Below, piece by piece: positions 1,032 through 19,031 of a DNA stretch of 54,845 bases. Location: NCBI GenBank assembly GCA_030754595.1, contig JASLZZ010000094.1, forward strand, positions 1 through 54,845, read 5' to 3'. Each line of letters starts with the position of its first letter. The first letter of the stretch is position 1. This stretch comes from Nitrospinota bacterium. Lineage in GTDB: Bacteria > UBA8248. The notes under the pieces are model-generated. The model was not told the DNA's origin and searched no databases. It saw only the letters and a list, made by a program, of their open reading frames with translations. Made by a program: the position numbers and the translations under genes.

Positions 1032-1063
1032 TTGATTCCGTACTATAGTACGGGGTATAGAAT
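1032..1063 (+). promoter_or_regulatory. MerR-type promoter/operator 1
   Basis: TTGATT(1032)-CCGTAC TATA GTACGG-GGTA-TAGAAT(1058): perfect dyad inside a 20-bp spacer, matching the CCGTAC-N4-GTACGG mer operator. Confidence 0.9.
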
Positions 1064-1114: not shown

Positions 1115-1609
1115 ATGGTGGAAAAAAAAGAGATTCGGCTCGCCGAAATTTTCAAGATGTTGTTGGTGAAAACGGGGGTTAGCCTCTGATGCGCGCCGTC
1201 TCTGGTCCCGGGTCTCGGGGCCGCTATCATCGGCGCGCTGGGTAGCCTGACGGTTTACCGGCCCTATTTCGTTGCATTTGCAATCGTCGCTCTTGTGTGG
1301 ACGTTCTTTCGCCATTACGGGTGGTGTATATCAAGGTCTTGGGGAGAAGGTTTCTCGGCGATTTTCGTTTGCCTCCGTCCCTCGAGCGAACGGGACGCCG
1401 GGCTCTACATCGGTTCGCTCCTCGTCCTTGCTGTGATTATCGCGCCGCCTTGGAGCGTGACCCAGTATTTCAAACCCGCGAACCCTTGCGCGGTATCCTA
1501 TCCTCGGCAGAGGGTCGTCCCTGCTGCGGAATCTCCGCGTCCCATAATTCAACAGATTTCGGAATCCAGTAATCCCTGCGATTCCGGGAATCAGCACTCG
1601 GTCCATTAA
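1115..1609 (+). CDS. MerT-like membrane protein, predicted selenoprotein (U-C motif), 164 aa
   Basis: ATG 1115 after GGAGAGG; TGA 1187-1189 in SL-U-CAPSL; LTVYRPYF motif; same frame as ORF 1295-1609; hairpin 1204-1222. Confidence 0.75.
1204..1222 (+). promoter_or_regulatory. SECIS-like hairpin
   Basis: GGTCCCG-ggtct-CGGGGCC; loop starts 21 nt after UGA. Confidence 0.65.
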
Positions 1610-1654: not shown

Positions 1655-1676
1655 TTGACTTCGTATATGGGCATGG
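1655..1676 (+). promoter_or_regulatory. Possible degenerate MerR operator
   Basis: TTGACT-TCGTAT ATGG GCATGG; two mismatches per half-site; -10 element unclear. Confidence 0.3.
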
Positions 1677-1732: not shown

Positions 1733-2206
1733 ATGACGGATACCGAAGCGAAGAAAAGAATTGGTTGGATGGGTTCTATTTTTTCAGGAGCTGCCTCCAC
1801 TGCTTGATGAGTCCCGGCGCTGGCTCCGAGTCTCGGAGCCTCGATTTTTGGCGGCCTTGGCAGCTTAACGGCCTATCGCCCTTACTTCTTGATTTTTGCG
1901 GCCGCTTCGCTGGCGTGGATGTTTTTTCGCCACTTTAAGAACCGCGTCTCCATCGCATGGACACGGGGCGCGGCTGCGGTACTTGCCGAGTTTAAGCCAC
2001 GAAGCGGCACGGACTACCGCCTTTACCTGGGAGCGGCAGCGGTGATCCTCTTGATGGCCTTTCCGCAATGGGGACGGCCTCTTCTTGCGAAGCCTAACAA
2101 CCCCTGCGCGGCGGCGAATCCTTGCGCTACGACAAATCCTTGCGCAGCGGTAAACCCCTGCGCGGCGGCGAATCCCTGCGGTGCCAAGCCCCCAAGCCGA
2201 AAGTAA
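1733..2206 (+). CDS. MerT-like membrane protein, predicted selenoprotein with tandem U-U and NPCxxx repeat tail, 157 aa
   Basis: ATG 1733 after GAGGTG; TGA TGA at 1805-1810 in AASTA-U-U-VPALAP; LTAYRPYF; same frame as ORF 1889-2206; hairpin 1822-1840. Confidence 0.78.
1822..1840 (+). promoter_or_regulatory. SECIS-like hairpin
   Basis: GGCTCCG-agtct-CGGAGCC perfect stem; loop 21 and 18 nt after the two UGAs. Confidence 0.7.
2099..2182 (+). repeat. 18-bp coding tandem repeat x5 (NPCAAA-like)
   Basis: Units start at 2099, 2117, 2135, 2153, 2171: NPCAAANPCATTNPCAAVNPCAAANPCG. Confidence 0.9.
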
Positions 2207-2268: not shown

Positions 2269-2300
2269 TTGACCCCGTACCTAGGTACAGGCTACAGGAT
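2269..2300 (+). promoter_or_regulatory. MerR-type promoter/operator 2
   Basis: TTGACC(2269)-CCGTAC CTAG GTACAG-GCTA-CAGGAT(2295); same geometry as site 1 with one dyad mismatch. Confidence 0.8.
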
Positions 2301-2352: not shown

Positions 2353-2598
2353 ATGAACGAAGGCGTAAAAGAAGTCATCGTTTACTCGTCCACGACCTGA
2401 CCCCCATGCAAGGCCGTGAGAGAGTTTCTCTCACATCATGGTATTCCCTTCACGGAAAACCTCGTGGATCAAGATTCCCAGGCGCTCGAAGCGTTTAAAA
2501 AAACCGGCTCGCGCGGCACGCCTACAATTCTCGTCGGGGACGAGATGGTGATCGGTTTTGATCGCGGGCGGCTTGAGCAGCTTTTAGGAATCAAATAA
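2353..2598 (+). CDS. Glutaredoxin/NrdH-like selenoprotein (U-P-P-C), 81 aa
   Basis: ATG 2353 after AGGAG; VIVYSSTT-U-PPCKAVREFL...TPTILVGDEMVIGFD; TGA 2398-2400; hairpin GTGAGAGA-gtt-TCTCTCAC 2416-2434. Confidence 0.88.
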
Positions 2599-2612: not shown

Positions 2613-2909
2613 ATGGCAGCAAAGGAGCGGTGGCTTTTCTGTCCGGTATGAGGCCAGGCGATTCCCGTACCGGCCGGTACATCGTATGACGAATTGTTCG
2701 ATTGTCCCAACTGCGCGGGCATCATGCTTCGCCTCGGCGAAGAGAACGGAGAAGATGTCCTTCGCGCGGCGCAATTGATTTCTTGTCCTGGCTGCGGCGA
2801 GCGATTGCCCATCGATGATGATACGCCGCCGGGGACCCTCATCCGGCATGACGGGGCCGAGTTTGTCCTGACCAAGGAGTTCGGAGCTTTTGCGCTGGAG
2901 AGTTCGTGA
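2613..2909 (+). CDS. Small zinc-ribbon-like protein, predicted selenoprotein (C-P-V-U, CPNC, CPGC), 98 aa
   Basis: ATG 2613 after GGAG; TGA 2649-2651 completes a CxxC-type motif; same frame as ORF 2694-2909; hairpin GTACC-ggcc-GGTAC 2667-2680. Confidence 0.78.
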
Positions 2910-2949: not shown

Positions 2950-3357
2950 ATGGACGCGATGACGATTGGCATACTTGCCCGGAAGGCGGATGTGAACGTC
3001 GAGACCATCCGCTATTACGAGAGACGCGGCCTCATAGAGTGTCCCCGGGAGCGGCGGGGCGCATATCGCGTCTATCCCGTTGAAACCGCATCCCTTGTCC
3101 GAAGCATCAAACGGGCGCAATCGCTCGGATTTTCGCTCAAGGAAATCAAAGAGCTAATGTCGCTTCGCCTGGACGAGGAAGCGATGTGCGGCGACGTTTT
3201 GGCCCGGACGGAAAAAAAGATCGCCGAAATAGACGAGAAACTTCGTTCGCTTCGGGCGGTGAAAAAACAACTCGTCCGGCTCGCTTCCGCTTGCCGTGAG
3301 ACGGCGCCCGCCTCGGAGTGCCCGATTCTAGAGGCGTTCGAGGGAAAAGGCGTGTAA
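2950..3357 (+). CDS. merR: MerR family heavy-metal responsive regulator
   Basis: MTIGILARKADVNVETIRYYERRGL HTH; AQSLGFSLKEIKEL; three Cys (MCGD, SAC, ECPIL) spaced like the Hg(II)/divalent MerR ligand set. Confidence 0.88.
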   Translation: MDAMTIGILARKADVNVETIRYYERRGLIECPRERRGAYRVYPVETASLVRSIKRAQSLGFSLKEIKELMSLRLDEEAMCGDVLARTEKKIAEIDEKLRSLRAVKKQLVRLASACRETAPASECPILEAFEGKGV

Positions 3358-3455: not shown

Positions 3456-4136
3456 ATGAACCCCAAAAACAATGGAGTTTTCGCAGGAATTTTGGGCGTT
3501 TCGTGTTGCGTCGTCCCTCTGATTCTAGTCGCGGCGGGGCTGGGCGGGAGCCTGCTCACTGTTTTTTTGGTGAAATATAAAGTTTATTTGATGACCTTGG
3601 CCGTGGCGGCGTTGTCACCGGCCTAGGCGCAGTACCTGCGCGAGGCGAAGGAATGCGAGACGCAGTTTTGCGCGATTACGGGCGGAAAATACCGTAAGTG
3701 GATGCTCGGGGCGAATACGGCGATGGTCTTGTTTTTCCTGATTGTCACCTACACCCCGGCGGGCGCGCTCGTGGGTGTCGATTTTCAAAGCGATGAATTT
3801 CCTGGGGCCGTGTCGAGTCTTCGGAAAGAGGCTACAGCCGCCATCCCTCCACTTGACCCGCGGTTCACATCGGGCAGGCCGGTCCGGGAGAGAGTCGATA
3901 AGACGCGCTACGAGCGGCTGACCCTTCGTGTCGAGGGGATGAGCTGACCTTTCACCTGACCGCAACTGGTCGCAGGGGCCTTGGACAGGCTTCCCGGTGT
4001 GAGAGTAAAAAACGTCAGCTACGCCAAGGCGCAGGCTGAGGTGCTCTACGATCCCCAAAAGGCCACCGTCGCTCAGATGGCCGGGGCTCTCGCTAAATTT
4101 AAATACAAGGCCTATCCGCTGAAAGCATCGAATTAA
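3456..4136 (+). CDS. MerT-like transporter fused to an HMA (MerP-like) domain; two predicted Sec; interrupted by in-frame TAG (possible pseudogene)
   Basis: Single frame: VSCCVVPLIL...ALSPA-TAG(3624)-AQYLR...C..C...LRVEGMS-TGA(3945)-PFT-TGA(3957)-PQLVAGALDRLPGV...AEVLYDPQKATVAQM...TAA 4134-4136. Confidence 0.75.
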
Positions 4137-4149
4137 GGGACAAATTGAA

Positions 4150-4407
4150 ATGAACCGCGAACCCTTGGAGACGGGAGACCAGAGAGAGGACCCGCCGGCG
4201 AAAGGTTTCGCCGGGAAGGCGCTTCTGGCGGCGGCTTTTTTTACCTGCCCCTGCCACCTCCCGGTTTATTCCGTTCGCTTTGGAGGGACGGCGCTGGGCG
4301 CCTACCTTGCCGGGTACGTGTGGTTTTCCGCCGCCGTCCTTACGGTGGTGTTTCTCTTTTCCTTCCTCGCGGGGATGCGAATGATTAAAGCCGGGGAAGC
4401 AACCTAG
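4150..4407 (+). CDS. merE: MerE-like mercury transport protein
   Basis: FFTCPCHLP...GGTALGAYL motif and two TM segments. Confidence 0.75.
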   Translation: MNREPLETGDQREDPPAKGFAGKALLAAAFFTCPCHLPVYSVRFGGTALGAYLAGYVWFSAAVLTVVFLFSFLAGMRMIKAGEAT

Positions 4408-4518: not shown

Positions 4519-4598
4519 CGCCCCCGTTTTGCGCTTGAATGATGCCGGACCGCAATACTTCCATAGCCGTCGTCGACCCAGCCGAAGGAGTTTTTGCC

Positions 4599-5558
4599 GT
4601 GGCAGAGAGAGATTTTGAAATCATCATTGTGGGTGCGGGCCCGGCGGGTTTGACGGCAGGCCTTTACGTCTCGCGCTCGAAGATCAGTGTCATGTGTTTT
4701 GAAAAGCTCGCCCCGGGCGGCGAAATTCTCAATACCGAGCACGTTGAGGACTATCCGGGTTTCGAAATGATTGGCGGTCCGGAGCTCGCTCAGAAATTTA
4801 CCGATCATGCCGTTAAATTCGGCCTCAAAATCGAGATGGAGGAAGTCTCCGAAATCCGAAAAGACGGCGACGATTTTTTCGTCAAGACCGACATGGGCGA
4901 ATACCGCTGCGGCGCGGTGATTTATACGGCTGGCGGTTTTCCGCGAAAACTCGATATTCCAGGCGAGGAGAAATATGCCGGAAAGGGAGTGAGCTACTGT
5001 GCCTTATGCGACGGCGCTTTTTTCCAGGATGAAGTCATCACCGTCGTCGGCGGGGGGAACAGCGCGGTCGAAGAGGCCCAGTTCCTCACGAAGTACGGCT
5101 CGAAAGTCTATCTCGTTCACAGGCGCCAAGGGTTTCGGGCGCACCAAGTGGCCGTGGACAAGCTCACGGAAAACGAAAAGGTCGAATTCATTCTCAACCA
5201 TGTGGCCGAGGAAGTGATCGGAGACGACAAGGAGATGAAGGCGATTCGCCTGAAAAATGTCAAAACCGGCGAAACGCAGGATATTGAAGCCAACGGGCTT
5301 TTCGTCTTCGTCGGGTTTATCCCGAACACCGATATCATCAAGGAAGATGTGGAAAAAGACGAAAGCGGGTTCATCATTACCGATCAGAACATGGAGACAA
5401 ATATACCCGGCCTTTTTGTTGCCGGCGATTGCAGGAGCCAGTTAATCAGGCAGATTACGAACGCCTCCGGCGATGCGACAACGGCGGCCGTGGCGGCCGA
5501 AAAATACCTGGAAGCCCAGGAAGACGCCAAGAAAGAGTCCGCCCCCGCCGCTTCGTAA
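4599..5558 (+). CDS. trxB: Thioredoxin-disulfide reductase
   Basis: GAGPAGLTA, GVSYCALCDG, VGGGNSAVEEA, GLFVAGD; GTG start after GAAGGAG. Confidence 0.95.
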   Translation: MAERDFEIIIVGAGPAGLTAGLYVSRSKISVMCFEKLAPGGEILNTEHVEDYPGFEMIGGPELAQKFTDHAVKFGLKIEMEEVSEIRKDGDDFFVKTDMGEYRCGAVIYTAGGFPRKLDIPGEEKYAGKGVSYCALCDGAFFQDEVITVVGGGNSAVEEAQFLTKYGSKVYLVHRRQGFRAHQVAVDKLTENEKVEFILNHVAEEVIGDDKEMKAIRLKNVKTGETQDIEANGLFVFVGFIPNTDIIKEDVEKDESGFIITDQNMETNIPGLFVAGDCRSQLIRQITNASGDATTAAVAAEKYLEAQEDAKKESAPAAS

Positions 5559-8659: not shown

Positions 8660-9757
8660 ATGAGTTCTCTTATTGAAGAATGCATAGACTTCCCGATCGT
8701 TGCGTGGTTGAAATGCCTGCTAAATCCAAACATGGATATGGCGCCTCGTCCCTGGTTTTTTAATTTGGCATCCGTGACTACGGTTTGCCTCATTTTTATT
8801 GTGACCATCATTCTCTTTAAAAAAAACTGGCTGAAAATCAAGGAAAATATTGTCGCCCAAAATTTGGCAAGTATCGGTGAAACGGTATCCTTGAAGGACG
8901 ATAAAGACTGGAATGATCGATGGAAAGGTTATCCATATCCGTCGATATTGATGACAATTATCCTTATAGCCGGAACGGCTTCAAGTCTGGGTGTGATCGA
9001 TCTTGAAAATGGCGCCAACATCCTGACCACGGGAACCCTTTTTTCTTTTTTTTACCCTCCCTACGATGAATACACACAGGGCTTGGCCGCGTTTAAGTGA
9101 GGATTTATCGGCGCTTTTGTTTATGCAGTTCAGGATTTGATGTGGTGGATGGTTCTCTTGGATCTGGCGCCCCGATCCATTTTTATTATGAGTCTTCGCA
9201 TCGTTGTGGCCAGCGTCGTGGCGTTGGCCGTTTATCATGCATTGGGCGAAACAAGGATTATCCCGACTGCCTTTACGGTGGGAATGTTTCCGCAACGAGG
9301 GCTGAATTTTATCGAAACCTTTTCCCAAAAGCGCCTTGGAAAAAAAGTGTCCAGTGATGTCGAGAACAGTTTTTCTCTCTCGTTCCTGAAAGATTTGTCC
9401 TCCACAAATCAATCGAGGCTTCGGGAGGAGAGTATCGAAACCGTCTGCGATCTCGCGGGTTTTTCCATGAAAAAACTTCTCCTTTACACGCCATTCGAGC
9501 TGGGACAGCTTAGGGACTGGAAAGAGCAGGCAGCGCTTATTTGCGTTTTTCACAAGGACAAGGAAGCCCTCAGGTCCAAGGCGGGCATCACCCACGCCTC
9601 GGAATTTGTGAATCTGGGAGATGAAGACGGAACTTTAGTGAAAATCGCGGGCTTGACCGGCCTCCCCTCGAATCGGCTTCAGATGGCTCACAAAACCCTG
9701 AAGGAAACCATAAAAAGGGATGAAAATAAAAACTGGGTCTTTTTCCCCTCCGATTAA
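8660..9757 (+). pseudogene. Multi-TM hypothetical membrane protein interrupted by in-frame TGA
   Basis: ORFs 8645-9100 and 9137-9757 share a frame: AAFK-TGA(9098)-GFIGAFVYAVQDL; AT-richer than flanks. Confidence 0.5.
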
Positions 9758-10134
9758 TCCATTCCCATCTCTTTGTACACGTTGAGCATGGCTTTCGTCG
9801 CGCCGACGGCGTTGGGGGCGCCGGCGTAGTAGGCGCAGATCATGACGATCTCCTGAAGGTCTTCCTTTCTCATGCCCATGTTGATTGCGGCCTTGGCGTG
9901 GTGCTCGAATTCGTTGTCCCGCCCGAGGGTGCACAAAATGGCAAGAATCACCGTCTCGCGGGCCTTGGGGTCGATTCCTTTCCGCTCATAAAGATCGCCA
10001 AATACGTTTTCGGTGACAAAACGGGCGAAATCAGGGTTCGCCGCCTCGAAGGCCCGTCGCCGTTCCTCGCCCTCATTTCCAAACACTTTCGCCCGATTAG
10101 CCAATCCTCTCTGGTATTTTTCTTCGTCCGCCAT
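9754..10134 (-). CDS. Carboxymuconolactone decarboxylase family protein
   Basis: YQRGLANRAKVFG, FGDLYERKGIDPKARE, H..AA..G, YAGAP. Confidence 0.85.
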   Translation of the reverse strand: MADEEKYQRGLANRAKVFGNEGEERRRAFEAANPDFARFVTENVFGDLYERKGIDPKARETVILAILCTLGRDNEFEHHAKAAINMGMRKEDLQEIVMICAYYAGAPNAVGATKAMLNVYKEMGMD

Positions 10135-10296
10135 TGAAGCCTCCCTTTACCGGATTCAAAAAAAGATTTGGCGCGGTTTCGCCGGAGCAACCCCGTCGAA
10201 AATCCTTTATACAGATTTTTTGGCGAACCGGCCCCCGCGGCGGTATAATAAAGAGCGCCGCCCGCCATCCGGCCGCCTGTCATCTGGAGACTCACC

Positions 10297-10551
10297 TTGA
10301 AGATTAATGCCTTGAAATTCGGAGTTGCGTTCGGGTTGGTTTATGCGGTGGTGTTTTTTCTCTACGGCTTGGCGGGGGCGTTGTTCGGGGTGGGCGTGAA
10401 ATTCGCCGAGATGATAGGAGAGTTCTACGCCGGGTTCGGACCGACCATCGGAGGAGCGATTGCTGGCGTCTTTTGGGGTTTCGGCGTGGGTTTCGTTTTT
10501 TTTGCCTTGGCGGCGGCGATTTATAATCGGCTCCTTGGCGAAGACGCCTAA
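10297..10551 (+). CDS. Small two-TM Gly-rich membrane protein
   Basis: TTG start after GGAG; TATAAT at 10244; ends IYNRL. Confidence 0.7.
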
Positions 10552-10564
10552 AAGAAAACCGCCT

Positions 10565-13372
10565 GTGATTCCCGGGATTCGAAAAATAATCGGCAAGGTC
10601 CCCATTTGCGCTTGGTTGGTCTTCATTTTTCTGATGGGAGGCTCGACCGCTCACGCCGCCGGCGCACTCTCGCCGATTCCGCTCAAATCTCCACCCAAAC
10701 ACCGGCTCTCTGTCCGCTCTTCGCTGCCGGGTACGCGAATCCGCGTACTGGGCCTTGTCGAATGGCGGACGGCCCCGTTCTCGGCGGACCTTCCCCGGGG
10801 CGCACACCGGATAGAAGGAAAATTTCCCGACGAGTCCACGGCCAGCAAGACTATTTTCCTCACCGAGGACTGGTCCGTCTGGTTCGGACCCGCGAGAATC
10901 CGTATCGAATCTTCGCCCTCGGACGCGGCGGTCAGCGTGGACGGCAAGGCGGTTGGCGTGACGCCCCTGGAAATGACGCTTTCGGGCGGCTTCCACGAAT
11001 TTTCATTTTCAAAAAAGGGATGGATTTCCGTTGCCCGGAGCTTCCAGGTCGGCGGGCCGTCGCGGCTCGCGGCCAAACTCAGGCGAGGTGGTGGCGAGTA
11101 TCGCCCTTTGGTGAGAAATGAGGGACTGTTTTTCGCTCCCGAGGAGGGTCGGCCGAACCGAAAACGCAAATTGAAAAAAAAGCTGATTGCAGGGGGCGGT
11201 GCGAAAATGCAAACGGGCGCCAAGCAGAAAGATTCCGGTGCCTGGCTTGTCCGGGCATACGGGGCCGGGAGAGGAAGCTCCCGTCCGACCCGCCGGTTTG
11301 CGTTTATCGCCGGTATCGGCAAATACGGTGATCGCCTGATACCACCCCTTCGGGGACCGGCCCTGGAGGCGAATGACTGGGTGCGCCTCCTTCAGGGAAT
11401 TGAGCCCGAAAGCTTCGGGACGCAGAACCTCTCCCGCGCGTCGTTGGCGTTCGATGAGTTTGATCGCGGCGGGCTTTCCTCCGGAAACATTACATATTTG
11501 TTGAACAAAGATGCCGATCGGGACGCTATCATCGAGGGTCTCCGGGAACTCTCCCAGGCCACCCTGCCCCAGGATTCGGTGCTTATTTATCTTTCGGGTT
11601 ACGGGGCGGTAATTCCGGGGGGCGCTGGCGGGCCGGAGTTGTATTTTCTTTCTCATGATACGAGGGGCCGGAGAGTTTGGGACAAGAGCGTGTCCGGGGC
11701 TGATTTTCAAAAAGCCCTCGCGGGAATCAAGGCGCGGCGGGTGGTGATGATTTTAGATGCCGGTTTCTCCGGAGACGAGGAGGCGGCCCGAAAATGGTCG
11801 CCCCGGCGGGACGGCGACACGGGCATCAGCGACTTCAGCCGTTTTCACATCCTCCCTCCGGGGCCCGGCCGGATTCTTTTGGTTCCGGGCCGCCTCGAAG
11901 TCGATCCGGCTAGCGGCAGAAGCCTGTTTACGAAATCTTTTTTGCGCCACTCCTACGACGGGACCGCGCCCATTTCCGAGGCGATACGGAGAGTCGCCGG
12001 AGAGAACCCATCGGCAAGGATACAGATGTTGGGCCAATTGATTTCTGGACAAACCCTGCGTGGGGACGAGCTTCAAGAAATGAAGGGGACGGGAGATGTT
12101 TACCTCACAACGCCCGACCCGGGAGCGGAGATATTTCTCGGGGGCCGCTCCGCCGGCCGGACGCCGCTGACTCTCAAGGGTCAGCCCGCGGGTCTGCTTG
12201 AAGTCCACGCGGTGGGCGGCGGCGGGAGGAGCATTGCCCGCCGGATTTATGTAGAGCCGGGGCTTCGGCTGGACTATGAACTGAGACCCCAGCTCTCGAC
12301 CAGCCACCTTTTTGTCGTCACCTCTCCGCCCGGCGGGGGAGTCGAGGTGATCGCTGGAAAGGCCTCTGTAAAATCGGCGTCGGGCTCTTTCATCGCCCGG
12401 CCCGGCCGGCTGCGCGTGCGTGCGGAGGCGCTCAGCCATTACGCGCGCGACATCGAGGTCGATATTCCCCCCGATCGGGTAATGAGGGTGAGTATCCCGC
12501 TCGTTCCTGCCGATGCAGGAGATTTTTTCTTTGAAGGTGTTCGCTCGCCCGCCGCTCTTTACCGCGGGGTGGGCGAGATGGCGTTAGTGCCCGGCGGGGG
12601 AGTCATCGTCGGCAAGCGGCGGAGCCTGACGAAGACGGCGCCCACCCGGCGGATGTCGATTGCGGGGTTTTACATTGATAAGCGCCTTGTTCGAAAAAAA
12701 GAATTCGCGCGGTTCGTCGCGGATTCTGGGTACTTGAGTGTGGCCCGGAGAAAAGAGACGGGCGGCGTCATGACCAAGGCGGGCGGCTGGACCCTCAGGC
12801 GCCGGGCGACTTGGGAGAATACGGACCCCCGAGATCCGTCCGGAGGAGCAGGTGAGACCGGGGCCTCTCTAGACCTTCCTGTAGTCCAGGTTGCCTGGGA
12901 GGACGCCGCCGCCTATTGCCGATGGTCGGGCGGAGGGCTGCCCACCGAAAGCGAGTGGGAAAAGGCGGCGAGAGGATCCGATGGGCGGCCCTATCCCTGG
13001 GGGCGGGAGCCGTTGGAAGACGGCGAAGGGAAGGTGAGCCGGCTCTACGGAGCCGGAGCAGATAGAGAAACGAATGGGCGAGCAACTTCCTTTCGCCTTG
13101 CCGGCCCTTACGGTGTCCGCGAGTTCTGGGGACCGATTGCCGAGTGGGTGAATAGAGATATCACAAAACCAGAGAGCCGGGAGAAAAAGGAAAAATCGGG
13201 GGAGAGAAGAAGCGGGCCGGCTCGATTCAGGGTCTACCGGGGAGGATGGGTTTCTTCCGGGGGGAAGCCGCCCACGCTCGACGCCCGAGGGCTCGCCGAG
13301 CCGGGCTTCAGTGACTCGCGCATCGGGTTCAGGTGCGTTCGGAACGCGGCGAAGATATTAAAAACGAAATAG
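10565..13372 (+). CDS. Secreted multidomain protein: PEGA + caspase-like + PEGA + FGE-sulfatase (SUMF1) domain; start uncertain
   Basis: [21 protein letters not shown] (PEGA); [45 protein letters not shown]. Confidence 0.8.
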
Positions 13373-18035: not shown

Positions 18036-19031
18036 TTAGCTCTCTTTCACGATGCGGTTGGAGAGGACGCCGATTCCCTCGATTTCGAGATCGAGGACAT
18101 CCCCCGGCTGGATCCACTTGTCGAGGTCGGCGCCGCAGCCAGTGCCCACGGTGCCCGAGCCGATGAGCTCGCCGGGGAGGAGTTCCTCCTCCATCGAAAG
18201 ATGCTCGAGCACGCGGCCCCAACTGAAATGCATGTCTCCGGCGTTGCCCCGGCTCCACTCCTCGCCGTTGACCCGGGCAGTCATCATGGCGTCGGTGTGA
18301 TCGAACTCATCGCGCGTCGCGACGCAGGGGCCGATGGCGGTGCCGAAATCCTTTCCTTTGTGCGGACCGAGCCAGAGGGACATTTCTTTCATCTGGATGT
18401 CGCGGGCGCTGAAGTCGTTCATCACCGTGAATCCGAAAATGTGGTCCAGCCCCTCCGCCTCGGGGATATCCTTGCCGCGTTTTCCGATGAAGATGGCGAT
18501 TTCGAGTTCGTAGTCGAGTTTTTCGGTGTAGTGGGGCCACTTGAGGTCCTCGCCGGGACCGATGATTGTGAGGCGGTTTCCCTTGTAGGAGCTGGGCATT
18601 TCATACCAGAGGGGATCTACTGTCGTGTTCCGGCGGCGGGCGCCGGCCTGCTTGTGCCCCTCGAAGGTGAGGCAGTCCCTGAAGGCCACCGGCCGGGGGA
18701 CGGGCGCCAGCAGGCTGACCTCTGAGAGACTGTAGGCCAGCTTTTCGCCTTCCGGGCCCTCCGAGCCCGGGCCCTGGGCCTCCAGGTAGGCCAGGGCGTT
18801 CCTGGCGGCCTCCAGAGAGGGTTCCCCGCCCGCCGCGAACTCGCAGATATCCTGCGGTATCCGGAAATCGGCATATTCCCGGTAGCGGGGCTCCCCGCCC
18901 CCGGCCTGTAGCCGGGCCGCACCGGCATGAGCCAGATCAACGGCCATTTCCTCGCCCCCGGAGTTCCAGAGCGCCCCTAGCCGTCTGATTTTCCCTGCCG
19001 GGGTAGCCACATCGAACGTAATGAATTTCAT
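18036..19031 (-). CDS. Fumarylacetoacetate hydrolase family protein
   Basis: LDYELE, NDFSARDIQ, KGKDF, GSGTVGTG. Confidence 0.92.
   Translation of the reverse strand: MKFITFDVATPAGKIRRLGALWNSGGEEMAVDLAHAGAARLQAGGGEPRYREYADFRIPQDICEFAAGGEPSLEAARNALAYLEAQGPGSEGPEGEKLAYSLSEVSLLAPVPRPVAFRDCLTFEGHKQAGARRRNTTVDPLWYEMPSSYKGNRLTIIGPGEDLKWPHYTEKLDYELEIAIFIGKRGKDIPEAEGLDHIFGFTVMNDFSARDIQMKEMSLWLGPHKGKDFGTAIGPCVATRDEFDHTDAMMTARVNGEEWSRGNAGDMHFSWGRVLEHLSMEEELLPGELIGSGTVGTGCGADLDKWIQPGDVLDLEIEGIGVLSNRIVKES

Follow-up and report, generated by a model that had tools for sequence, protein, structure and literature searches.

A predicted selenocysteine-containing double zinc-ribbon protein in a mer-like gene cluster of a Nitrospinota bacterium and its possible role as a cytoplasmic mercury acceptor

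We analysed a stretch of 54,845 nucleotides (nt) from a Nitrospinota bacterium (GTDB lineage Bacteria; UBA8248; GenBank assembly GCA_030754595.1, contig JASLZZ010000094.1, positions 1 to 54,845 of the forward strand), which is called the window here. A gene at 2613..2909 (+) has an in-frame TGA at codon 13, and with this TGA read as selenocysteine (Sec) it very probably encodes a selenoprotein, a small tandem zinc ribbon similar to LysW. The gene is located among genes for Mer-type mercury importers, a MerR-family regulator and a glutaredoxin-like protein which also has Sec. We propose, with a probability of about 60% as judged from sequence and gene context, that the ribbon protein accepts Hg(II) from the Mer importers in the cytoplasm and that Sec is one of its metal ligands. 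The features of the gene are as follows.

2613..2909 (+): ribbon protein gene, 98 amino acids (aa), double LysW-type zinc ribbon (translation, Pfam PF21344, AlphaFold2 model); stop codon TGA at 2907-2909
2640-2642, 2649-2651, 2703-2705, 2712-2714, 2784-2786 and 2793-2795 (+): codons of C10, U13, C31, C34, C58 and C61 of the ribbon protein, respectively
2649..2651 (+): in-frame TGA at codon 13, predicted to be read as Sec (CPVU), from TGA in 5/8 and TGC in 3/8 orthologous genes and from full-length Cys forms in the protein database
2667..2680 (+): hairpin resembling a Sec insertion sequence (SECIS), 5-bp stem and 4-nt G-containing loop, beginning 15 nt after the TGA; weak evidence

Translation of 2613-2909 (+) with TGA as U gave a peptide which starts with MAAKERWLFCPVUGQAIPVPAGTSYDELFDCPNC, continues with CPGCGERLPIDDDTPPGTLIRHDG and ends with ...EFGAFALESS. 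It reproduced exactly the peptide with CPVU quoted in the initial annotation of this DNA, which had proposed a new selenoprotein family. When the frame is read with table 11, its sole opening is TTG at 2694, and the product of 71 aa begins inside the first ribbon and loses the first CxxC knuckle. The G+C content of the window is 58.8%, and the stops of 28 long open reading frames (ORFs) in it are TGA (10), TAA (11) and TAG (7). Since TGA is an ordinary stop in 10 of these 28 ORFs, the genetic code is standard and the TGA at codon 13 is a local exception.

A word-indexed search of 5.8 billion proteins found 19 relatives of the ribbon protein (database proteins are numbered with P below). A scan of one genome per species found seven loci (L001-L007) in metagenome-assembled genomes (MAGs) labelled Nitrospinota, Nitrospinae, Nitrospinaceae or 'bacterium', and together with the window they form an orthologue set of eight genes. 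The column of codon 13 is TGA in the window, L001, L003, L006 and L007, and TGC (Cys) in L002, L004 and L005. Among the database relatives, the full-length proteins with CPxC at this column are P0002, P0005, P0006 and P0008-P0011, and one more full-length protein, P0007, has Arg. The remaining 11 of 19 are N-terminally shorter forms (71, 83 and 78 aa, plus eight of 61 aa), which is the pattern expected where gene callers meet an in-frame TGA; P0012 matches exactly the last 61 residues of the L001 gene, a TGA-bearing gene. The homologues thus have CPxC in 7/19 relatives and TGA or TGC in 8/8 genes, rather than beginning after the UGA or lacking Cys at that column, and the selenoprotein proposed in the initial annotation passed this comparison. 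In these alignments the TGA/TGC pattern is the classical Sec/Cys signature.

Across 15 full-length sequences there is no exception at C10, P11, C/U13, C31, C/U34, C58, P59 or C61, and the conservation of E5 and L8 before the TGA reaches 90% or more. The 12 codons before the TGA are conserved and include the first Cys of the knuckle. The ribbon orthologue at 384-680 of L007 has two Sec codons (CPGU and CGNU), the second at the C34 column, so its predicted first site is Cys2Sec2, and an 8-bp hairpin is located downstream of the second TGA. P0007 reads CPVRRK at the Sec/Cys column, which may reflect a change of TGA to CGA/AGA or a sequencing error.

Hairpins were counted by one rule: five or more uninterrupted pairs enclose a loop of 3-6 nt, and the hairpin begins 13-21 nt from the codon's first base. 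A rule-passing hairpin is present in 5/5 TGA forms and 1/3 TGC forms of the ribbon gene, and after all seven candidate Sec codons in five window genes. It is lengthened to 7 bp in L001 and L003, and a different 5-bp hairpin one nucleotide upstream is found in L006 and L007. The adjacent glutaredoxin gene has an 8-bp hairpin in 7/8 orthologues, with a compensatory G-C to A-T change, and has Sec in 8/8, including the loci whose ribbon protein has Cys. On this comparative ground, the glutaredoxin hairpin with its Sec is firmer proof than the ribbon hairpin that these organisms decode Sec. An excerpt of PMC13326102 also places the L004 genome among the most selenoprotein-rich bacteria of BSepDB, with 54 genes.

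Pfam Zn_ribbon_LysW (PF21344) matched the ribbon protein in two stretches with 33.1 bits against a gathering score of 27, which agrees with the two LysW-type repeats described in the initial annotation. The second repeat retains only its first CxxC (C58, C61); its second-knuckle position is RHDG in the window and ELCG or RHGG in relatives. Structure prediction, which had been recommended as a check, was made with AlphaFold2 from a 15-sequence alignment and gave a confident all-beta model (pLDDT 86.8, pTM 0.67) with nine strands in two strand-knuckle-strand repeats. In a Foldseek search of the PDB the top match was LysW 3vpb_E (46 columns, root-mean-square deviation (rmsd) 1.4, probability 1.00, E 0.027, TM (target) 0.71), followed by three more LysW entries. 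A profile search of PDB sequences also found LysW (E 0.0015), and U13 was aligned to the second Cys of LysW CPVC. In the same 15-sequence alignment the C-terminal motif LTKEFGAFALE is conserved and the tails of relatives vary after ALE. The end ...EFGAFALESS bears out the absence of the LysW tail noted before.

The ribbon protein did not pass any NCBIfam model (release 20). The best was LysW/ArgW NF041070 (43.6 vs cutoff 75), the FmdB-family TIGR02605 (20.4 vs 31.3) and the dual-CXXC NF041197 (13.1 vs 40) were also below cutoff, and TIGR01206 was absent from the matches at E <= 0.1. No match of the window ribbon protein to NF041115 (UxxU metal-binding (seleno)protein) was obtained, and no HMA match (PF00403) was among the 25 best of its 54 Pfam matches. 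An exhaustive profile search of 1.84 billion representatives revealed 78 relatives at E <= 0.001, 31 of them at E <= 1e-10. In the more distant ones the second site is complete (CxxC plus [C/H]C), so the close mer-linked clade has lost part of it.

The distant relatives connect the ribbon with mercury importers by gene fusion. A search from one distant member gave at least 528 clusters of soil relatives, about 94-96 aa in length, and the few of them with a taxon are Rokuibacteriota or Methylomirabilota. Among the relatives of this member, P0197 (167 aa) is a ribbon joined to MerF above the Pfam cutoff. A search for longer proteins gave 13 matches among 269 candidates. In seven of the 13 (P0217, P0218, P0221, P0223, P0225, P0226 and P0228) the ribbon is followed by a MerT-like membrane domain, and P0225 additionally carries MerE (Pfam 53.3 vs 22.8). 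P0224 is a ribbon with MerF (NCBIfam 58.9 vs 50), P0227 is a glutaredoxin fragment with half a ribbon and possibly a broken gene, and the remaining longer relatives have uninformative extensions. With hhalign, the profile of the window clade aligned to the N-terminal 94 residues of P0224 with 99.5% (E 5e-23) and of P0217 with 99.6% (E 1.4e-24), and LT.E.GAFA.E was included in the alignment. By these profile alignments the fusion N-termini and the window ribbon protein are the same domain. BLASTP of P0217 against MerT-like gene 2 of the window showed no significant similarity. Given the membrane topology of MerT and MerF, a ribbon placed N-terminal to a membrane part of MerT or MerF type would probably be in the cytoplasm.

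The features of the cluster around the ribbon gene are as follows.

1032-1058 (+): MerR-type operator with the CGTAC-N4-GTAC motif, upstream of MerT-like gene 1
1115-1609 (+): MerT-like gene 1 (Pfam), in-frame TGA at 1187-1189, 'UC'
1655-1674 (+): weaker operator-like site
1733-2206 (+): MerT-like gene 2 (Pfam), two consecutive in-frame TGA at 1805-1810, 'UU'
2269..2300 (+): MerR-type promoter/operator upstream of the glutaredoxin (grx) and ribbon genes, with TTGACC, the dyad CCGTAC-N4-GTACAGG and a -10 region
2353..2598 (+): glutaredoxin-like gene with predicted Sec (UPPC; TGA 2398-2400), 14 nt upstream of the ribbon gene (Pfam Glutaredoxin 54.1 bits)
2950..3357 (+): merR-family regulator gene, 40 nt downstream of the ribbon gene (Pfam MerR_1 66.5 bits, MerR-DNA-bind 63.2 bits)
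3456..4136 (+): MerT-like membrane part with HMA (MerP-like) domain, in-frame TGA at 3945-3947 and 3957-3959 and in-frame TAG at 3624-3626
4150..4407 (+): merE-like transporter gene (Pfam MerE 39.4 vs 22.8 bits)
4539..5558 (+): thioredoxin-disulfide reductase gene (TIGR01292 368.4 vs cutoff 343.45), possible reductant of the glutaredoxin-like protein

The operator at 2269-2291 reads TTGACC-CCGTAC-CTAG-GTACAGG, with a spacer of 18-20 bp depending on the -10 hexamer chosen. It agrees with the published MerR 7-4-7 signal, which is TCCGTAC-(4)-GTACGGA within a 19-bp promoter spacer in excerpts of PMC1526738 and PMC11049809. CGTAC-N4-GTAC occurs at two sites in 54.8 kb, with three strand matches against 0.05 expected, and 0/100 shuffles reach three; the enrichment is given for this motif because a longer pattern was built from the sites themselves and its statistic is circular. 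The -35 box with CCGTA is present upstream of grx in 6/7 sequences with sufficient upstream DNA (window, L001, L002, L003, L005 and L006) and not in L007, and L004, with just 19 nt of sequence upstream of grx, is outside this count. The operator is conserved in L001, L002 and L003 and partly in L005 and L006. No terminator-like site was found between 2598 and 2950, so co-transcription of grx, the ribbon gene and merR is plausible.

The Sec-glutaredoxin gene is directly upstream of the ribbon gene in 7/7 loci, and its stop overlaps the start of the ribbon gene in L005, L006 and L007. Its product has an invariant EFLSHH motif immediately after UxxC and is closest to YruB/NrdH-type glutaredoxin-like families, below their cutoffs. 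Near the ribbon gene, merR is found in 6/7 loci, merE in 6/7, the thioredoxin reductase gene in 5/7 and MerT-HMA in 3/7; a MerT-like gene is upstream in 2/7, and several contigs end there. MerF is encoded immediately 3' of the ribbon gene in 2/7 loci (L001 and L004), above the NCBIfam cutoff, and L002 has a CopZ-N-terminal-type metallochaperone at this position. The L004 MerF (599-874) keeps the first-helix Cys pair and ends with ...RKKKAA without a later Cys, and the L001 copy (816-1007) stops early. A separate acceptor in the cytoplasm would agree with a MerF that has no Cys pair there. With tblastn, P0033 and P0002 had no match in 72,556 plasmids.

Other proteins of the cluster also seem to have Sec in place of metal-binding Cys. 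In MerT-like genes 1 and 2 the in-frame TGA codons are at the positions of the MerT first-helix Cys pair, and a 7- or 8-bp hairpin follows each. In the window HMA domain the TGA pair is spaced U-PFT-U, with three residues between, while L005 (about 8200) has the usual two-residue U-GA-U; the window MerP-like HMA scored 63 against a cutoff of 95 with the NCBIfam UxxU metal-binding (seleno)protein model. We therefore count up to seven candidate Sec codons in five genes of the window cluster (ribbon, glutaredoxin, two MerT-like and the MerP-like domain). The initial annotation suggested a soft-metal chaperone which is co-transcribed with the seleno-glutaredoxin and merR. The MerR-type operator, the conserved synteny and the fusions with MerF, MerT-like and MerE parts strengthen the genomic side of this suggestion, and metal binding itself is a prediction from the sequence.

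In our model, the ribbon protein would be transcribed from a MerR-controlled promoter together with the Sec-glutaredoxin, merR and the Hg(II) importers. Module 1 would offer four ligands (C10, U13, C31 and C34) and module 2 one CxxC pair (C58 and C61), both as exchange sites. Hg(II), or another soft metal, would be taken at the cytoplasmic face of MerT/MerF/MerE-type importers through thiolate/selenolate ligand exchange. In general chemistry Sec is the better nucleophile and the stronger Hg ligand, and the selenolate at position 13 might allow faster and tighter capture. In classical mer systems, HMA domains (MerP and the MerA N-terminal domain) take Hg(II) from the importers. The adjacent Sec-glutaredoxin and thioredoxin reductase might keep the Cys/Sec pair reduced or hand the metal onward.

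Several results weigh against this reading. For Sec, a rule-passing hairpin also follows 1254/10514 ordinary codons (11.9%) and 10/100 Cys codons. The 72 nt from the UGA have no excess stability (z = +1.84, 196/200 shuffles fold at least equally well), and synonymous recodings match the native folding of the hairpin region in 13-61% of trials across the five TGA forms, the recoding test being significant in 0/8 genes. Rfam at gathering thresholds gave 0 matches in the whole window, selA, selB, selC and selD were not found among 43 long window ORFs, and ARAGORN found no tRNA-Sec in the window. For the fold, there is no Foldseek match at E <= 0.001. For mercury, the MerT-like parts of the seven fusions score only 20-27 bits on NF010314 (E 4e-6 to 4e-4), below the cutoff of 150, with most of the profile covered. 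The best NCBIfam match of the window MerR is TIGR02051 with 128.2 bits, below the cutoff of 150.85 for this Hg-specific model, so the inducing metal is not certain. Further, merA was not found among the 43 window ORFs scanned, so the model has no mercuric reductase in the window for the imported Hg.

ARAGORN also reported a 90-nt tRNA-Gly (anticodon tcc) at 18725-18814, inside an opposite-strand ORF of the fumarylacetoacetate-hydrolase family (18039-19031), which is probably a false positive.

The alternative which survives best, though we regard it as unlikely, is that the ribbon protein is a redox carrier and not a metal chaperone. The CxxU would cycle between selenenylsulfide and selenol/thiol, in a chain from thioredoxin reductase to Sec-glutaredoxin, ribbon and target, or the ribbon would hold a rubredoxin-like iron site, and the operon would repair mercury-damaged thiols. 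CxxU is indeed the motif of several redox selenoproteins (PMC13188914 Table 1), and the Sec-glutaredoxin precedes the ribbon at every locus with translational coupling in three. The thioredoxin reductase within the cluster is above its equivalog cutoff, and P0227 joins a glutaredoxin fragment to a ribbon. However, module 1 shows no variation at its four positions, as in ribbons that bind metal, and the model resembles Zn-bearing LysW. Fusions to Hg importers are found in 8/13 longer relatives (by family matches) against one to a glutaredoxin fragment, which is apparently a broken gene. The redox role and the role as metal acceptor are compatible and not exclusive.

It is improbable in our opinion that the protein acts as an adaptor, structural or regulatory, in which a stable Zn ribbon docks on transporters or MerR without handling metal, with Sec as a near-neutral swap of a Zn ligand. 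Zinc ribbons often serve to bind proteins, and weak matches were obtained here to 54 Pfam families of ribbons or fingers; the Cys forms of 3/8 loci appear equally serviceable, and the complete second site of the distant relatives would be a Zn site. Against this, two separate clades have kept the costly Sec at one and the same ligand, and L007 has it twice. The MerT-like and HMA proteins of this operon, too, have Sec where the known Hg-binding motifs have Cys, which points to metal chemistry.

That the protein is not a selenoprotein at all is very improbable. In this case the TGA would be a true stop or an error, and the product would be the 71-aa ORF from TTG 2694, or the gene would be a pseudogene. 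Public gene calls do give such short proteins (P0003 with 71 aa and the 61-aa forms), and neither the hairpin test nor the search for Sec machinery in the window gave support to Sec. But TGA stands at the same column in 5/8 independent assemblies with TGC in the others, and the conserved 12 upstream codons include the first knuckle Cys, while the short ORF is without half of the first ribbon. The TGA-for-Cys pattern with hairpins is repeated in four neighbouring genes, with the compensatory change in the glutaredoxin hairpin, and one of the genomes with an orthologue, L004, is the one credited with 54 selenoprotein genes in the BSepDB excerpt (PMC13326102). A LysW/ArgW-type amino-group carrier of lysine or arginine biosynthesis is hardly conceivable: although LysW comes first in Pfam, in NCBIfam, among PDB sequences and in the fold comparison, this reading is already contradicted, as far as the sequence features go, by the score on NF041070 (43.6 vs 75), by the C-terminus ...FALESS without an acidic tail ending in Glu, by two modules instead of one and by neighbours which are mer genes and not lysX/Y/Z/argX.

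The cytoplasmic Hg(II) acceptor that we prefer can be compared with three kinds of known proteins. LysW/ArgW (PF21344, NF041070; PDB 3vpb_E, 3wwn_B, 5eio_C and 3wwl) have the same small all-beta zinc-ribbon fold with the CPxC first knuckle at the same place, and residues 8-53 of the ribbon protein align to S. tokodaii LysW in both the profile search (E 0.0015) and Foldseek (46 columns, rmsd 1.4). In the LysW/ArgW carriers, an acidic C-terminal tail ending in Glu carries the substrate. Unlike them, the ribbon protein has tandem modules, no such tail, a score below the NCBIfam cutoff, Sec in the knuckle and a mer context. The likeness to the HMA Hg(II) metallochaperones (MerP and the MerA N-terminal domain; PF00403) is a proposed one and of function only: a small soluble Cys-pair module which would exchange Hg(II) with MerT-type importers. 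Like them, the ribbon protein occurs in operons under predicted MerR control and is sometimes fused to a transporter, but it differs in its all-beta fold and in its three knuckles with six Cys/Sec, where the HMA proteins have a single GMTCxxC.

The third kind is small selenoproteins. Predicted small Sec metal proteins include the FmdB family (TIGR02605, UxxU), the dual CXXC protein (NF041197), the UxxU metal-binding protein (NF041115) and the MerT family (PF02411) (PMC13188914 Table 1), and several predicted CxxC-type small selenoproteins are tied to heavy-metal handling (PMC13188914 Table 1; excerpt of bioRxiv 10.1101/2022.07.06.499078). Like the ribbon protein, all of these are small metal-related proteins in which Sec takes the place of Cys in a CxxC-type motif, so the idea of Sec as metal ligand in such proteins is not new. 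The initial annotation regarded Sec in a zinc-ribbon-type site as unusual; as a prediction it is not unprecedented, since the FmdB-family UxxU protein and the dual-CXXC small selenoprotein are listed in the same table. In contrast to TIGR02605, NF041197 and NF041115, the ribbon protein, with about 98 aa, consists of LysW-type ribbons in tandem and carries the conserved LTKEFGAFALE at its C-terminus.

The 2026 inventory of 119 prokaryotic selenoprotein families/subfamilies (PMC13188914 Table 1) does not list the ribbon family, and 'ribbon', 'LysW' and 'PF21344' occur nowhere in PMC13188914. The family is also absent from the excerpted part of a 2022 review (PMC9312934), and among the papers listed for selenoprotein zinc ribbons or mer-linked LysW ribbons we found no description of it. 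In this comparison the families of Haft and Tolstoy 2025 were taken as listed in PMC13188914 Table 1, and the family tables of BSepDB are outside it. 'Hypothetical protein 1' (CxxU) of the Sargasso Sea study was considered as an identity and rejected, because the 2026 review equates it with the AhpD-related family NF041238. With its absence from the table and no NCBIfam model of its own, the claim of a new family was upheld, and the ribbon protein is a candidate new Sec-bearing family to be added to the bacterial selenoproteome.

Some further observations were made in the cluster and its counterparts. MerT-like gene 2 has at its C-terminus a fivefold NPC(A/G) repeat, NPCAAANPCATTNPCAAVNPCAAANPCG, which makes a Cys-rich tail. 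The in-frame TAG at 3624-3626 is in a predicted membrane helix where L001 has Trp, and it could come from a nonsense mutation or from an error of sequencing, or it could mean that there are two separate genes. In L005, the only one of the loci examined with a reductase like MerA or glutathione reductase nearby, a class-I flavoprotein disulfide reductase beside merR is divided over two reading frames; its closest families are glutathione reductase and MerA, and its score is below the MerA cutoff. The same mer-like cluster of L005 also contains an insertion sequence element (transposase with rve integrase core), and the element and the reductase together account for 8901-10354 and 11068-12433.

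As a wider speculation, which is a rather unlikely one as a whole, the cluster might be a selenium-based Hg pathway without mercuric reductase. Hg would be imported by Sec importers (UC, UU and U-x3-U) and caught by the Cys3Sec ribbon (Cys2Sec2 in one species), and it would then end in inert Hg-selenolate/Hg-Se species or be reduced by the Sec-glutaredoxin and thioredoxin reductase. In an excerpt of PMC12484752, merA and merB are reported in MAGs of Nitrospinota and UBA8248, and hgcAB in Nitrospinota MAGs. If the speculation were true, it would mean new detoxification chemistry in abundant relatives of marine nitrite oxidisers, in which mercury methylation is suspected as well.

Few bacterial resistance systems have been studied as well as the mer system, and a double zinc-ribbon partner of Mer importers, although widespread, is apparently an accessory protein not yet described for it. 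The marine Nitrospinota-labelled cluster would offer a concrete and testable example in which Sec binds a soft metal instead of catalysing redox reactions. A ribbon selenoprotein would also explain a set of truncated 'hypothetical proteins' in public annotation, and it may bear on the handling of mercury by the relatives of marine nitrite oxidisers.

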